This document shows, piece after piece, positions 6,970 through 61,960 of a DNA stretch of 64,000 nt. The DNA lies in NCBI GenBank assembly GCA_963813235.1, contig CAWEYF010000012.1, positions 4,170-68,169 on the forward strand. Direction: 5' to 3'. The notes under the pieces are model-generated. The model saw only the letters and a program-made list of their open reading frames with translations, had not been told where the DNA came from and did not search any database. The translations under genes were made by a program, and so were the position numbers. Each line of letters opens with the position of its first letter. The stretch's first letter is position 1. Source of the stretch: Candidatus Aminicenantes bacterium (GTDB lineage: Bacteria; Acidobacteriota; Aminicenantia; Aminicenantales; Saccharicenantaceae).

Positions 6970-8052
6970 TCAGCCGCAGACGTCCTTGAAGACCCGCAGG
7001 AAATTGGTCCAGCAGACCTTCTCGAGGGTCTTTCGGGGCATCTCGGCCTCCGAAAGCCGCTCCTGGGCGGTCCGCAGGCCGCGGCAGCCCGTGACGCCGG
7101 CGGGAAGGTCGGGGACGCCGTCGAAGTCCGAGCCGAAGGCGACATGGTCCTCGCCGGCGATGTTGATCAAGTGGTAGATATGTTCGAGATAACGGTCCAG
7201 GGGGACGCGGTACCCCTCCATGGCCTTGCCGAATTGGCCCGCGAGGTCCCTGAGGAGGGCGAATTGCGCCGCCGGGTTCGCCCCCGCCTTTTCCTCTTCC
7301 CGGTCGAGCCTCTCGAAGAGGTCCCCCGCCCGTTCCGATTCCTTCCGGTAGCGCGCGTCGAGAAAGCCGGGGTAGATGTTCACCCCGACGAGGCCCCCCC
7401 CGGCCGCGATGCCCTTGGCCAGGTCGTCGCTGAGGTTGCGAAGGATGGGGCAGAGGGTCCGGGAGCAGGAATGCGACGCGACGACAGGCCGACAGGTCAG
7501 CGATAGGACCTTCCGTACGGTCGTGTCGTGGGCGTGCGAGACGTCGACGATCATCCCCATCTTGTTCATGGCGGCGACGACCTCCTCGCCGAAACGGGTC
7601 AGGCCGTCGAAGGCGGGCTCCCGGTCGGCCGAGGAGATGACCCAGGCGCTGCTGCGGGAGTGGACCAGGGTCATCAGCCGCACGCCGCGGGCGTACAGCC
7701 GCTCGAGATTCGCCAGGTCGTTCTCGAGGGCGTCACCGTTCTCGACGGCCAGGACGGCCGCGAACCGGCCCTCCGCCCGGGCGTCCAGGACCTCCTGGGA
7801 GGTCCGGCAGACGGAGATGTCGCCGGAGAACGTGTCCAGCTCCCTGTCCAGGCCGTCCAGGAGCCGCGACGCGAACTCGAATCTGCGGCCTTCCGGGACG
7901 GCGGGGGGGACATAACAAGCGAAGACCTGGAGCCCGATGCCGGCGTCCGCCATCGCGGGCAGGTTGACCTGGAGGTCCGGGTCGTCGAGCCGCCTGCCGG
8001 CCGCGAGGCCGATGGCGGTATCGCAGTGCAGGTCGGCGATCGGGATGGCCAT
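6970..8052 (-). CDS. Membrane dipeptidase (peptidase M19 family)
   Basis: The track ORF extends to 8598, but homology begins at [12 protein letters not shown] (ATG at 8052, preceded by GGAGGAAATTC). M19-type motifs are present: [24 protein letters not shown]...[16 protein letters not shown]. Confidence 0.85.
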
Positions 8053-11423: not shown

Positions 11424-11434
11424 CGATCCCTATG

Positions 11435-11580
11435 GGATCGCGTTCGAAGGACTCGGGGTGCGGCGATGAAAGTCGCCCCTCTCCCCCCGATCCCCTGGAA
11501 CCAGTCCCGGCGGTTCCCCCCGCCCTGAAGGGCGGGTCCCCCCTCCGCTACGGGGGGCGTCAGGGCGACCTTCGTCGCCG
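11435..11580 (+). repeat. Structured dispersed repeat, copy A (outer 18-bp stem enclosing three GC hairpins)
   Basis: GGATCGCGTTCGAAGGACTC leads into GTGCGGCGATGAAAGTCGCCC (11461-11478), which pairs with GGGCGACCTTCGTCGCCG (11563-11580). Internal hairpins are GGAACC..GGTTCC, CCGCCCtgaaGGGCGG and CCCCCC..GGGGGG. It is near-identical in layout to 34732-34877. Confidence 0.7.
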
Positions 11581-11741
11581 GGTCCTCCGGGATATCTTCG
11601 CGGGGCGGTCCTGTTGTTGCTCATTTCGGGCCCTTGCAAAACATCTATTATATCAGAGCCAGGCGCGCTAGACGAGCGGGGGGTGCGGCGCGATATCACG
11701 TTATGTGGTTGCATCTCCTCTGTCGGCAATACGGCCTGCTT

Positions 11742-11762
11742 CCCCCCTTTTCCAAAGGGGGG
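11742..11762. repeat. Solo CCCCCCTTT-N3-AAAGGGGGG hairpin
   Basis: CCCCCCTTTtccAAAGGGGGG. It is the same hairpin unit that is arrayed at 61766-61910. Confidence 0.5.
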
Positions 11763-11830
11763 AACTCATGGGAAAGACGAGGGCTGGATTCCGCCGCTGC
11801 AGCCGCTCGCGCTTCGGGCCACGTGTGGCG

Positions 11831-11839
11831 TGATATAAT
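11831..11839 (+). promoter_or_regulatory. Extended -10 promoter element for mntP
   Basis: TGATATAAT (TGnTATAAT) ends 24 nt upstream of the mntP ATG at 11864. Confidence 0.4.
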
Positions 11840-11863
11840 AGCCTTTCTTGCCGAGACGCTGAC

Positions 11864-24300: not shown

Positions 24301-25502
24301 ATGTACGGGCGTTTCCAAGAATATCTTCAGGGCGAGCTGGAGCAGGATCAAGGCCGAGGGCCTCTACAAGCTCGAGCGGGTCCTGACGACCTCGCAGGGC
24401 GTCGAGATCCGGACCGAGGACGGGCCGAAGGTCCTCAACTTCTGCGCCAACAACTATTTAGGGCTCTGCAACGAGCCGCGGGTCATGGCCGCCGCCAATT
24501 ACACGTTCTTCCGGCTGGGCTACGGCATGGCATCGGTGCGCTTCATCTGCGGCACCTCCGAGGTCCATAAGGAGCTCGAGCGGAGGATGAGCGAGTTCCT
24601 GGGCACGGACGACACCCTGCTCTATTCCTCGGCCTTCGACGCCAACGGCGGCGTCTTCGAGCCTCTGCTCGGCGAGGACTCGGCCATCATCTCGGACGAG
24701 CTCAACCACGCCTCCATCATCGACGGCGTCCGCCTCTGCCGGGCCCGCCGCTACGTCTACAAGAACAACGACATGGCCGACCTCGAGGCGAAGCTCAAGG
24801 ACGCCGCGGACGCCCGGTTCCGGCTCATCGTCACCGACGGCGTCTTCTCGATGGACGGCATCATCGCCCAGGTGGACAAGATCTGCGAGCTGGCCCGCCG
24901 CTACGACGCCCTGGTCATGGTGGACGACTCGCACGCCACGGGCTTCATCGGAAAGACGGGGCGGGGGACCCATGAGCATTGCGGCGTCATGGGCGATGTG
25001 GACATCATCGTCACGACCTTCGGCAAGGCCCTCGGCGGGGCCTCCGGCGGCTGTATCTCCGGGCGGAAGGAGATCGTCGAGTTCCTGCGGCAGAGGTCGC
25101 GGCCGTACCTGTTCTCCAATTCGCTGACGCCCGGCATCGCCGGGGCCACGATCGAGGTCCTGAAGATCCTCGGGGAATCGACGGAGCTCAAGGACCGGCT
25201 CGAACGGAACACGGCCCGCTTCCGGAAGGGGATCGAGGCCGCCGGGTTCCGCATCGTCCCGGGCATCCATCCCATCGTCCCCATCCTCCTCGGCCACCTG
25301 CCGAACGACGCCAAGCTCTCCCAGGACTTCGCCGAACGCCCTCCTCGAGGAGGGCATCTACGTCATCGGCTTCTATTTCCCGGTCGTCCCGCGCGGCAAG
25401 TCCCGCATCCGGGTCCAGATCAGCGCCGCCCACACCCCCGAGCAGATCGACTTCGCCGTCGAGAAATTCGCCAAGGTCGGAAGAGCCCTCGGCGCGATCT
25501 GA
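24301..25502 (+). pseudogene. kbl: Glycine C-acetyltransferase-type alpha-oxoamine synthase (Kbl-like), frame interrupted twice
   Basis: Motifs: [72 protein letters not shown]. Frame switches are near 24345 and 25335. The corrected C-terminus is [30 protein letters not shown]. Confidence 0.8.
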
Positions 25503-28010: not shown

Positions 28011-29258
28011 ATGGCATACAGCGACAAGGTCCGCGGCATCTACGAAGCCCAGCTCCAGGGCATCCGGGACGCGGGCATCTTCAAGCAGGAAAGGTACATC
28101 CACTCGCCGCAGGCGGCCGACATCGAGGTGGAGTTCCCCTCCGGCGCGGCCTTGAAGAAGGTCATCAACATGTGCGCGAACAACTACCTCGGCCTCTCGA
28201 GCCATCCGGACGTCGTCCGGGCGGCCCATGAGGGGCTCGACGCGCGCGGCTACGGCATGTCTTCGGTCCGTTTCATCTGCGGCACCCAGGACATCCACCG
28301 CGAGCTCGAGCGCCGGGTGACGGAGTTCCTGGGGACAGAGGACACCCTCCTCTTCCCCTCGTGCATGGACGCCAACGCCGGTGTCTTCGAGGCCATCCTG
28401 ACCAAGGACGACGTCATGATCTCGGACCGGCTTGTCCACGCCTCGCTCGTCGACGGCATCCGCCTCTGCTCCGCCATGCACGACACCTACAAGCATTCGG
28501 ATATGGCCCACCTCGAGAGCAAGCTTCTGCTCTACGCCGACAAGCGGCTCAAGGTCGTCATCACCGACGGCGTCTTCTCGATGGACGGCGACGCGGCGAA
28601 GCTCGACGCAATGGTCGCCCTCTGCGATAAGCACGACGCCATGCTCCTCGTCGACGAATCCCACGCTTCGGGCTTCATCGGGAAGACCGGCCGCGGGACG
28701 CACGAGCGGTGCGGCGTCATGGGCAGGATCGACGTCATCACGACGACGTTCGGCAAGGCCCTCGGCGGGGCGTCCGGCGGCTGCGTCTCCGGCCGCCGCG
28801 AGCTCGTCGAGATGTGCCGCCAGAAGGCCCGGCCGTATCTTTTCTCGAACACCATCGCCCCGGTCGTCGTGGCCGGCGTCCTCAAGGTCATGGAGATCCT
28901 GTCCGGGAGCACGGAGAGACGCGACAAGCTCGAGGCGAACTCCGCCTACTGGCGGAAGGGCCTGGCCGAGGCCGGCTTCGTCCTCAGGGAAGGCGACACG
29001 CCCATCGTTCCCGTCATGCTGTTCAACGCCAAGCTCGCCCAGGACTTTTCCAAGGCCCTCTACGATGAAGGGGTTTACGCCATGGGCTTCTTCTTCCCGG
29101 TCGTCCCCCAGGGCCAGGCCCGCATCCGGACCCAGCTCTCGGCCGGCCACGAGACGCACCACCTCGACAAGGCCCTCGACGCGTTCGTCAAGGTCGGGAG
29201 GAAGTACGACATCCTGGGCAAGAGCAAGCAGGAGATCATCGAGAAATACGGGATGTAG
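28011..29258 (+). CDS. Glycine C-acetyltransferase-type alpha-oxoamine synthase (Kbl-like), intact
   Basis: 415-aa ORF. Motifs: [61 protein letters not shown]. It is paralogous to 24301-25502 and has an extra C-terminal tail (KYDILGKSKQEIIEKYGM). Confidence 0.85.
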   Translation: MAYSDKVRGIYEAQLQGIRDAGIFKQERYIHSPQAADIEVEFPSGAALKKVINMCANNYLGLSSHPDVVRAAHEGLDARGYGMSSVRFICGTQDIHRELERRVTEFLGTEDTLLFPSCMDANAGVFEAILTKDDVMISDRLVHASLVDGIRLCSAMHDTYKHSDMAHLESKLLLYADKRLKVVITDGVFSMDGDAAKLDAMVALCDKHDAMLLVDESHASGFIGKTGRGTHERCGVMGRIDVITTTFGKALGGASGGCVSGRRELVEMCRQKARPYLFSNTIAPVVVAGVLKVMEILSGSTERRDKLEANSAYWRKGLAEAGFVLREGDTPIVPVMLFNAKLAQDFSKALYDEGVYAMGFFFPVVPQGQARIRTQLSAGHETHHLDKALDAFVKVGRKYDILGKSKQEIIEKYGM

Positions 29259-34704: not shown

Positions 34705-34731
34705 GCATCATCCGGGCCCTCAGCCCGAATG

Positions 34732-34877
34732 GGATCGTCTTCGAAGGACTCTGCGTGCGGCGATAAGGGCCGCCCCCTTCCCCCCGACCCCCTGGAACCA
34801 GTCCCAGCGGTTCCCCCCGCCGGGAACGGCGGGTCCCCCCTCCGCTACGGGGGGCTTCAGGGCGGCCCTCATCGCCG
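34732..34877 (+). repeat. Structured dispersed repeat, copy B
   Basis: Same layout as 11435-11580. CGGCGATAAGGGCCGCCC (34758-34775) pairs with GGGCGGCCCTCATCGCCG (34860-34877). The inner hairpin is CCGCCGggaaCGGCGG. Base-pair swaps relative to copy A preserve the pairing. Confidence 0.7.
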
Positions 34878-35249
34878 TGTCTCCGGAACGCCTTTCCGTC
34901 CTCCGTGCAGCGATCCCATCTTGTCCCTGGCACTGAGCAAGAATCCGTGGGCTAGAGGCACGGGCGGGACGGACCGAGCGGGCGTGGAGGGTTTAGCCCG
35001 CACGAAGCCGATTTCGAGGAAATTCGGACTCGTATGTCTGAGCGTACGGTGTTCTTGAGCTAACGCCACCCAGGGCGTGACCATGAGGTCGTAGCCAAGA
35101 GCAAGTTCGCGATTACGAGACCGCCGATGAAATTGGTGAGGGCGCGGCGTTAAAAACCCGACCGGGAGCGAGGCCGTTCTATCCGGGCCTTTTAGCCAGC
35201 CCACGCACGGCAAGTCTGAAAAGGCCCTCGAGTCCTTCGAAGGCGATCC
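34732..35249. mobile_element. MITE-like 518-bp segment bounded by 20-bp terminal inverted repeats
   Basis: The left end GGATCGTCTTCGAAGGACTC (34732-34751) matches the reverse complement of the right end GAGTCCTTCGAAGGCGATCC (35230-35249) at 19 of 20 positions. There is no transposase ORF inside and no clear target-site duplication. Confidence 0.45.
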
Positions 35250-35310
35250 TTATGCTGATACGCCAAGGACTTTTATGAAATCATGACCATGGCGTTCAAG
35301 CTCAACTGGA

Positions 35311-35928
35311 TCACCGGGCCTTGTAGATCCCGGAGGGCTTAGCGCCGAGGAAGACGGACCTGTAAAGCCAAGCGTCCGCCGGGCTGAGCTCGCGGACCAT
35401 CCGGGGCGTGATCATCCGGAAGTGACGGGCGGCATTGAGGGCGTCGCCGATGTAGCCGATGTCCTCCTCCGTCGTGACCCAGTCACGGCGGTCGAACCGG
35501 GCGAGGCTGAAGGGAGAGGAATAGGATCGGAGAGATTTCCGGCGCTTGGTGTTGAAGCAGACGTCGAAGTAGGACATCGCAAGTTCCCGGACCGTCCGGT
35601 AGACGGGCTCGCGGTACCGGAGGACGGCGAAGTTGGACTTGGCCACCGCTCCCCAATGCCCCCGCCTCTTGAAAACGGCGATGACGTGGTCATCGTCGTT
35701 GGCGCCGACGAGGTCCACGATGAGCGGCCGATGTCCCAAAGCGCGCAGGGCCGCCGCGGCGAATAGGGCGCCCTCGAAGCAGTTGGCGGCCCCCTCCCGT
35801 GCCGTCCAGAGGGGAGAACGCGTCCCCGGGCGGTCGTCGTAATCGAGCCGGTCGAGGAACCTCTGGACGCGAAACGGGGAGTCGAGTCCCCGGAAGAGGG
35901 TCCGCGGAGCGTCCCGAATATATTTCAT
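35311..35928 (-). CDS. Transglutaminase-like (Cys-His fold) hypothetical protein
   Basis: 205-aa ORF. GAANCFEGALFAAAALRALGHRP...DDDHVIAV...HWGAVAKS fits a transglutaminase-like Cys/His arrangement. This is a family-level guess. Confidence 0.55.
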   Translation of the reverse strand: MKYIRDAPRTLFRGLDSPFRVQRFLDRLDYDDRPGTRSPLWTAREGAANCFEGALFAAAALRALGHRPLIVDLVGANDDDHVIAVFKRRGHWGAVAKSNFAVLRYREPVYRTVRELAMSYFDVCFNTKRRKSLRSYSSPFSLARFDRRDWVTTEEDIGYIGDALNAARHFRMITPRMVRELSPADAWLYRSVFLGAKPSGIYKAR

Positions 35929-37303: not shown

Positions 37304-37484
37304 GCCGGACTCCTTGGACCGAAAAGTTTCTGGGACCTTGACTGCGCGATCCCCCCTTGGGAGTCGTCGGTTGCGTCGCGGTTAAAAAGAAGGCACTCTC
37401 TCCGTGAAGGCCCATGTTAGCACATATTGGGTCCGGAAAGCGAGAGGCGTGGGGACGCTAGGGGGCGCCTCCACACGACCCTGA

Positions 37485-37530
37485 GTGCGGCGACGAAGGC
37501 CGCCCTTGCTGATCTCTTCGGCGGCCTCGG
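37485..37530 (+). repeat. Short member of the GTGCGGCGA..GGCCGCCC repeat family
   Basis: GTGCGGCGACGAAGGCCGCCCttgctgatctcttcGGCGGCCTCGG. It shares the core with copies at 11458, 34755 and 57287 and forms its own AGGCCGCC/GGCGGCCT hairpin. Confidence 0.4.
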
Positions 37531-37817
37531 AACTCGCGAATTTGTACGACGCATGACTTCCGCTCATGCCCAAAAGCGACTGCGTCCCCAGATCTCCGTA
37601 CCGGGGGGCTCAGACCGCCTACGAGCCCGAATCTCCTTCACCTCCGATAATGAAACCTGGGCTTAACCTCCACGTTCGCTCAGTCCGCCCCATCCGGCCC
37701 CCCAGCCTGCAGGCGGAGAATTAGGCCGGAATGCGTTATCGGGCTCGTAGTAGGCTTTTCCCGGCATGGCTCACGCTCATGATGCGCCCGGCCGAGACAA
37801 GGCAGGACAGCGCTTCA

Positions 37818-45219: not shown

Positions 45220-45254
45220 GGATCGCCGCGCCCCTAGTCCTTCGAAGGCGAACC
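45220..45254. repeat. Collapsed/solo terminal-repeat remnant of the TIR family
   Basis: GGATCGCC-gcgcccct-AGTCCTTCGAAGGCGAACC. The right part matches the right TIR at 35231-35249 at 18 of 19 positions, and the left 8 nt match the left TIR start. Confidence 0.4.
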
Positions 45255-45267
45255 TGGGGCGGTTCTG

Positions 45268-57265: not shown

Positions 57266-57321
57266 CCTCCTTTGAAGGAACTTGTGTGCGGCGATGAGGG
57301 CCGCCCTTCTCCCCCCCCCGG
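57266..57321 (+). repeat. Truncated 5' part of the structured repeat family
   Basis: CCTCCTTTGAAGGAACTTGTGTGCGGCGATGAGGGCCGCCCTTCTCCCCCCCCC. This parallels CGTCTTCGAAGGACTCTGCGTGCGGCGATAAGGGCCGCCCCCTTCCCCCC at 34737-34785 and lacks the 3' half. Confidence 0.45.
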
Positions 57322-61754: not shown

Positions 61755-61960
61755 AATCCCCCCGGCCCCCCCTTTAGCAAAGGGGGGAAGACCAAATCCC
61801 CCCAACCCCCCTTTAGGAAAGGGGGGAATCTATAGAGCCGGGCCTCGCATAGTTACCCCCCCCCATAGACCCGGGCCCGGCTTGGGTTACCCCCCTTTGA
61901 AAAAGGGGGGCGAGGGGGGATTTGCCGAGTCTCCACAGATCCTCCTTCAGGAAAGGGGGG
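61755..61960. repeat. Array of C6/G6-tract hairpins (CCCCCCTTT-N1-3-AAAGGGGGG) with AAATCCCCCC flanks
   Basis: Hairpins lie at 61766-61787, 61806-61826 and 61890-61910, with a degenerate one at 61941-61960. There is a C9 run at 61856-61864. AAATCCCCCC occurs at 61755 and 61794, and its complement GGGGGGATTT at 61914. The array occupies the divergent spacer between tatA and the S41 protease. Confidence 0.7.

Follow-up and report, generated by a model that had tools for sequence, protein, structure and literature searches.

Long-palindrome MITEs are known from several bacterial groups, among them Neisseria (Correia/NEMIS), the enterobacteria (ERIC/IRU), pneumococcus (RUP and BOX) and the cyanobacteria (Nezha), and in these families the termini are conserved and the centre is free. 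The element described here, of which two copies lie in a 64,000-nt stretch of an Aminicenantes contig (the whole of which we call "the window"), resembles these MITEs in being small, non-coding, dispersed between genes in both orientations and able to form one long hairpin over its entire length, and in having terminal inverted repeats, apparent short flank duplications and insertion polymorphism between relatives. It differs from these MITEs (compared here by description) in that its centre is conserved and its arms and termini vary by subfamily. It differs further in having no sequence match in a plasmid collection (searched by blastn) or among viral contigs, and no parent insertion sequence was found.

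Three other kinds of described system share part of this anatomy. REP/REPIN sequences (RAYT, IS200/IS605-like Y1) are likewise extragenic, GC-rich and present in many copies, and the likeness would extend to folded single-strand hairpins read by an enzyme in trans, with structure weighing more than terminal repeats. However, a REP is a hairpin of 20-40 nt and a REPIN is two of these in inverted arrangement, whereas the present element has an asymmetric three-hairpin core of ~85 nt on arms of 18 to >50 bp; no RAYT-like gene was seen near its copies among 570 flanking ORFs. With integron attC sites the element has in common a one-strand fold, covarying stems and a central part of highly variable length, but attC keeps its outer R''/R' boxes and varies at the centre, whereas here it is the centre that is conserved. 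The attC boxes (RYYYAAC ... GTTRRRY) are absent from the window copies, in which GTTCGAA and GGTTCC lack the three purines after GTT. Moreover, attC sites form same-orientation cassette arrays beside an integrase, while the copies in the window are solitary, stand 23 kb apart and, like the other copies, have no integrase among their neighbours. Finally, HEARO, the omega RNA of IscB and the IS605-orfB motifs also occur in many copies per genome with strong covariation, variable stems and conserved junctions. Those motifs adjoin or overlap a nuclease or transposase gene—the element, in contrast, comes without an accompanying gene and has no Rfam match.

Anatomy of the two copies and extent of the family

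Copies A (11432-11600) and B (34729-34920), both on the + strand, are 87% identical. A repeat search of the window joins them as an ungapped 153-nt repeat (11432-11584 versus 34729-34881, 87% identity), with copy B in register with copy A at an offset of +23297, which confirms a preliminary description that had placed two copies of shared architecture at 11435-11580 and 34732-34877. The position of the 146-nt unit proposed there stands, but its length does not: the unit is longer and includes an outer shell and terminal inverted repeats. In both copies an 18-bp outer stem surrounds three GC hairpins. The 18 positions of this stem had been correctly identified, though in copy A only 16 of them are Watson-Crick pairs, the other two being a G.T (T11467.G11574) and an A.C (A11471.C11570). 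Also correct were the paired differences reported between the copies, i.e., T11473-A11568 in copy A versus C34770-G34865 in copy B within the outer stem, and C-G (A) versus G-C (B) at the closing pair of the middle hairpin. The features of the two copies, and of the fragments related to them in the window, are as follows.

11434-11452, + strand: copy A, left terminal inverted repeat in the outer shell, GGGATCGCGTTCGAAGGAC (fuzzy match to the subfamily terminal repeat, 1 mismatch)
11461-11478, + strand: copy A, 5' arm of the outer stem P1, pairing with 11563-11580
11479-11496, + strand: copy A, C-rich junction J12, CTCTCCCCCCGATCCCCT, two C-runs with a variable linker of 2-3 nt between them
11497-11517, + strand: copy A, hairpin P2, GGAACC-AGTCCCGGC-GGTTCC (RNAalifold consensus)
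11519-11536, + strand: copy A, the variable hairpin P3, CCCGCCC-TGAA-GGGCGGG (all 7 pairs covary)
11538-11557, + strand: copy A, hairpin P4, CCCCCC-TCCGCTAC-GGGGGG, with an 8-nt loop (97% family identity)
11563-11580, + strand: copy A, 3' arm of P1, pairing with 11461-11478 (RNAalifold and family covariation)
11581-11600, + strand: copy A, remnant of the 3' shell, GGTCCTCCGGGATATCTTCG, common to the 3' shells of L036, L075 and L157
34731-34749, + strand: copy B, left terminal inverted repeat (terminal-repeat matching)
34758-34877, + strand: copy B, P1 enclosing J12, P2, P3 and P4 (in register with copy A)
34794-34814, 34816-34833 and 34835-34854, + strand: copy B, hairpins P2, P3 and P4, respectively (in register with copy A)
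34899-34920, + strand: copy B, degenerate right terminal repeat, GTCCTCCGTGCAGCGATCCCAT (read from the sequence)
35230-35250, + strand: solo right terminal repeat, GAGTCCTTCGAAGGCGATCC, 95% complementary to 34732-34751
37452-37545, + strand: decayed copy that keeps the shell and both P1 arms, its core reduced to ~10 nt (sequence comparison)
45222-45255, - strand: solo terminal repeat module upstream of queC (inverted-repeat search and fuzzy match)
57266-57317, + strand: 5' fragment of a third copy, with shell, 5' arm of P1 and first C-run but no core (repeat search)

The sequence GGGATCGnnTTCGAAGGAC is the terminal inverted repeat at both 11434-11452 and 34731-34749. The left terminal module of copy A recurs, inverted, at the 3' ends of L010, L032 and L157, and the right end of copy A itself carries no recognisable terminal repeat (missing or decayed). 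Copy B has exact inverted 9-mers at its ends (ATGGGATCG at 34729 and CGATCCCAT at 34912). The element contains no convincing ORF; as had been judged from the outset, the ORFs across the window copies look non-coding, being Pro/Gly/Arg-rich read-throughs on both strands.

Searches with a covariance model and with sequence patterns extend the family to at least 120 metagenome contigs and several MAGs. A metagenome scan anchored on the first hairpin (P2, which is thus fixed by the search pattern) found the same core in all of these contigs, and at least 120 distinct copies were recovered. The covariance model (R1), built from 65 metagenome copies, gives copy A 129 bits and copy B 122.9 bits (E about 1e-35 each), detects nothing beyond these two above 15 bits over the whole window, and found, on the same contigs, second copies in which the anchor sequence is missing. 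A pattern scan of GTDB MAGs, taken as one genome per species, yielded nine complete examples of the element and two partial ones, with several of the MAGs labelled Aminicenantes; the other 40 loci in that scan are chance matches. Homologs of the window's decarboxylase that have a source name are mostly labelled Aminicenantes at 72-74% identity (nearer homologs have no label), and for a host contig of 48% GC the nearest homolog among the named ones is likewise labelled Aminicenantes. The window's own UvrA protein has no exact counterpart on record. Host contigs span 46% to 66% GC and, as far as tested, the element is specific to Aminicenantes.

No Rfam 15 family reaches its gathering threshold at the elements of the window or of five further loci, and even at E<=10 nothing relevant comes up for copy A, the best sub-threshold hit having <=16 bits and covering the P3 hairpin only; the earlier statement that the repeat fits no known RNA family is thus upheld. 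A literature search on the core sequence and on Aminicenantes MITEs or structured RNAs retrieved no matching paper. This is a real, previously undescribed, lineage-wide family of small non-coding elements.

Compensatory change around a conserved centre

Folded as single sequences, the + strands of the two copies do only modestly better than shuffled ones (z = -1.4 for A and -3.6 for B), so the structural case rests on the relatives. Their RNAalifold consensus consists of the outer stem P1 and the three hairpins P2-P4. In a model-based alignment of 122 distinct sequences, tested against 500 shuffles, standard pairs occupy 94% of cells, versus 77% in the shuffles and at most 56% when the pairing partner is slid by 1-3 columns. 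Double-sided changes were counted in 658 cells versus 184 in the shuffles, and none of the 500 shuffles reached any of the observed covariation measures. Such changes affect every modelled pair of P1 (13 of 13), and all seven pairs of P3 covary in a hairpin that ranges in length from 0 to about 150 nt and exists in 70 distinct versions. The fold is clearly preserved by compensatory change. Selection on secondary structure, which the preliminary description had proposed from the differences between A and B, is therefore borne out by strong covariation across more than 100 relatives, and those differences prove to be a small sample of a family-wide pattern.

The centre of the element behaves differently from its arms. 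Specifically, mean pairwise identity falls from 97% in P4 and its loop and 72% in J12 to 57% along the P1 arms, 42% within P3 and 32% in the flanks, and the figure for P4 was not imposed by the search, since P4 lay outside the metagenome search pattern. P2 is unchanged in 10 of 11 copies compared, 9 of those 11 having been found by a pattern that fixes only its 3' arm, and a compensatory variant (GGGACC/GGTCCC) is present in L100. Some 60 nt in the middle of the element hardly vary at all, while arms and termini vary among subfamilies and covary. Taken together, the regional identities and the covariation indicate that the centre is conserved and that the arms can take on new sequence provided that pairing is kept.

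A palindromic module, GCTCGAAGGGGATTCGC ... GCGGATTCCCCCTTCGAGC, recurs within core hairpins: it occupies P3 in L150 (478-640), L061 and L140, and in L029 its place is upstream of GGTTCC, inside P2 or adjoining it. The module represents a second element nested in the first or else an expanded subfamily.

Ends, empty sites and decay

Units measure 137-297 bp between their terminal repeats (~170-190 bp in the window) and are non-coding. The outer shells differ by subfamily and the terminal inverted repeats are subfamily-specific. In the window subfamily the termini are GGGATCGCCTTCGAAGGAC and its inverse; terminal repeats of the form GGTTCTTCTCCCG...CGGGAGAAGAACC bound 17 copies, and the members of that subfamily are located in A/T runs, which in many cases are the T-tract of an intrinsic terminator. 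In this, the GGTTCTTC subfamily, the two flanks match at 4.94 of 8 positions, versus 3.62 +/- 0.37 when shuffled (a value reached by 0 of 2000 shuffles). No single duplication is perfect, and the likeness of the flanks fits a decayed duplication of ~8 bp. At copies A and B no clean target duplication is visible.

Sites that hold the element in the window are empty in relatives. At the copy B site, the 606 nt of the window (34705-35310) compare with 16 nt between convergent genes in L172, a relative whose decarboxylase is 90% identical, whose downstream genes are the same and from which the whole 34705-35310 spacer is absent; a second relative has 17 nt at this site. At the copy A site (the uvrA-mntP spacer), L067 lacks the element and its spacer measures 48 nt, and L100 holds an element of another subfamily there. 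Model R1 finds no match on L172-L174. As these empty-site comparisons are between related species and not strains, deletion instead of insertion could conceivably account for them.

Between copy B and the solo terminal repeat downstream of it lie ~300 nt of lower-GC non-coding DNA (34921-35229), also absent from L172. A 59-nt piece of this DNA resembles, in inverted form, the corresponding spacer of the distant relatives L173 and L174, and an Rfam search at E<=10 on 34880-35330 gave nothing relevant.

Old copies without a core occur as well. For the decayed copy at 37452-37545, the orthologous site in L172 (about 7630-7690) has two terminal repeats only, and the central deletions at the two sites differ. 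Such decay, in the window and in L172, indicates that single copies are not maintained by the host.

Copies are enriched at gene ends and show no strand preference (n=102). Specifically, the 102 copies with genes on both sides comprise 35 in convergent, 26 in co-directional, 24 in anti-directional and 17 in divergent settings, and copy A is found between the divergent starts of uvrA and mntP. No gene family recurs among the neighbours (570 flanking ORFs, in which the largest cluster comprises 6 loci). In L019 and L055 the 3' flanks of the element are identical and the 5' flanks unrelated, a pattern explained either by copies having recombined with each other or by chimeric assembly at the repeat.

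Several further features of the window were recorded. A second small hairpin repeat, CCCCCCTTT-N3-4-AAAGGGGGG, is found at 11741-11763, 61766-61788, 61805-61827 and 61889-61911, and more weakly at 61944, always on the + strand (8 pattern matches versus 0.01 expected); one copy stands beside copy A in the uvrA-mntP spacer, three or four share a single intergenic region, and the repeat may represent a REP-like family within this genome. The region upstream of mntP (Pfam Mntp) extends over 450 nt, including a stretch at 11600-11863, compared with 48-167 nt in relatives, and Rfam has no yybP-ykoY riboswitch match there. The sole gathering-level Rfam match in the window is a full-length cobalamin riboswitch (RF00174, 32628-32803, - strand, 92 bits). 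Two gene-sized segments, 24427-25483 and 28157-29200, lie 3730 nt apart with 71-74% identity and, from their sequences, are likely tandem paralogous genes.

The conserved core and what it may mean

We consider that the element is probably a non-autonomous, MITE-like palindromic selfish element whose folded core serves as a cis-acting site. In common with MITEs, in particular the palindromic Correia or ERIC type, it is small and non-coding, has terminal inverted repeats and many dispersed copies, and is found at orthologous sites that are filled in some genomes and empty in others. The mobile DNA repeat that the preliminary description had offered as an alternative is likewise backed by the terminal inverted repeats, the apparent flank duplications and the empty orthologous sites. 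A copy spans about 150-300 bp and consists of terminal inverted repeats, long complementary arms and, at the apex, an asymmetric core of two C-runs, GGAACC-AGTCCCGGC-GGTTCC, a hairpin of free sequence and CCCCC-TCCGCTAC-GGGGG. If only copies with an intact core propagate, as we infer, then the folded single strand that presents the core would be the cis-acting site, to be read by machinery supplied in trans (a transposase, an HUH- or recombinase-type enzyme, or a reverse transcriptase). The arms would need only to pair, and individual copies would be selfish and without function for the host. Insertion takes place in either orientation, for the most part beside the ends of genes. A/T runs are a frequent target, apparently with a short duplication of the flank. 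An autonomous partner with the same ends and an enzyme gene was not found in ~1.2 Mb of loci around elements; pairs of terminal repeats 0.35-5 kb apart proved to be chance matches inside ordinary genes, and the candidates from pairs 2 kb apart lay in genes such as uvrA, infB-like and sulfatase-like ones.

Conservation of the core and not of the termini is the reverse of what a DDE-transposase MITE has, and the classical MITE model thus leaves the core unexplained. It is possible, and we put this forward tentatively, that the core is the cis-acting heart of an undescribed mobile system, be it an apex-read single-strand DNA element or a new functional RNA on palindromic carriers; in its RNA form, the core may be a ribozyme or a switch between two helices. 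The idea that the core arose as a separate insertion into pre-existing hairpins was rejected: there is no core-less P1 hairpin in the loci, and all GGTTCTTC shells carry the core.

The main rival, that the core is a functional structured RNA spreading on a palindromic carrier, with its + strand transcript as the active form, we regard as rather doubtful, though several observations speak for it. Candidate identities for such an RNA are a ribozyme that cleaves itself, a small RNA that binds a protein or has a regulatory role, and the RNA component of a mobile system; tertiary or intermolecular contacts would be the task of its conserved loops and C-runs. The combination of invariant junctions and loops, covarying stems and a free hairpin of 0-150 nt is ribozyme- or riboswitch-like. 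The terminal loops of P3 are A-rich on the + strand (109 A versus 41 T, p = 3e-8), which points to a strand-specific constraint, and A-rich hairpin loops are typical of functional RNA. Furthermore, the single G-run of P4 can pair alternatively with the first C-run of J12 in a long-range helix, as single-sequence folding predicts, and run lengths correlate at r = 0.46 for this long-range helix versus 0.06 for the local P4. Compensatory variants exist for each of the two pairings: the long-range helix is compensated in L129 (GCCGC/GCGGC), L091, L092 and L146, while L066, L078 and L087 are compatible with the local P4 helix only; L094 holds the long-range helix solely via G.U pairs on the + strand. 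These two competing helices look like a switch.

Against a functional RNA, G.U pairs show no clear excess over A.C on either strand. The G.U/A.C counts are 32/63 in P1, 10/14 in P3, 10/6 in P4 and 54/54 for the extension of P1, and most of the A.C surplus in P1 is due to a single position within an expanded subfamily. Nor are GNRA or UNCG loops enriched in P3 on either strand. The window copies have no promoter-like (sigma-70-like) or terminator-like site, orientation relative to flanking genes is unbiased, no associated protein gene emerges from the 570 flanking ORFs, copies decay by loss of the core, and a search of Rfam, ribozymes included, gives no matching family even at E<=10. More specific candidates, namely HDV-like, twister and group II domain V folds, were rejected, as their strand order or consensus (taken from general knowledge) does not fit and Rfam gives no match.

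The preference of copies for gene 3' ends, with the convergent class the biggest (35 of 102), and the many copies within the T-tracts of intrinsic terminators would suit a cis-acting element of the flanking genes, i.e., a terminator, a 3'-end mRNA stabiliser or a 5'-UTR regulator, and a long GC hairpin would stop 3' exonucleases whichever way round it lay. We nevertheless find this very unlikely, and the terminator or 3'-UTR stabiliser suggested in the preliminary description finds no support. No T-run follows the stem in copies A and B (the sequences 3' of P1 are GGTCCTCC and TGTCTCCG, respectively) and a terminator scan was empty at the elements. Copy A lies in a divergent promoter region, between two gene starts; orientation shows no bias, the two directions being equally frequent in tandem contexts (26 versus 24); the copies have no common neighbour gene; and close relatives are without the element at the same sites. 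In addition, a simple barrier hairpin needs no asymmetric invariant core.

Scarcely credible, by comparison with all of the above, is a set of duplex DNA operators for a dimeric protein, with no single-stranded fold. GGAACC-N9-GGTTCC and CCCCCC-N8-GGGGGG do resemble operator-type inverted repeats, but P3 stays paired despite unrelated sequences and lengths of 0-150 nt, the arms stay paired over 18 to >50 bp of changing sequence, and the elements are dispersed rather than placed at the promoters of a regulon; with P3 so free in both sequence and length, simple binding to a duplex operator is ruled out. A G-quadruplex or i-motif was also dismissed, the runs overlapping the base of P3.

For a probable MITE-like selfish element, this family inverts the usual MITE logic—a conserved centre with free ends—and so points to a propagation mechanism that reads the folded core. 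Earlier multi-copy structured motifs, e.g., HEARO, proved to be parts of RNA-guided systems, and the covariance model offers a direct handle for tracing the partner enzyme through its co-occurrence with the element. Aminicenantes abound in sediments and are uncultured, and, to our knowledge, almost no mobile or non-coding elements have been described in them. In these bacteria the element seems to be present many times per genome, and it changes intergenic DNA, for instance the promoter region between uvrA and mntP; as it also gives rise to spurious ORFs and breaks metagenome assemblies, recognising the family would improve the annotation of Aminicenantes genomes.
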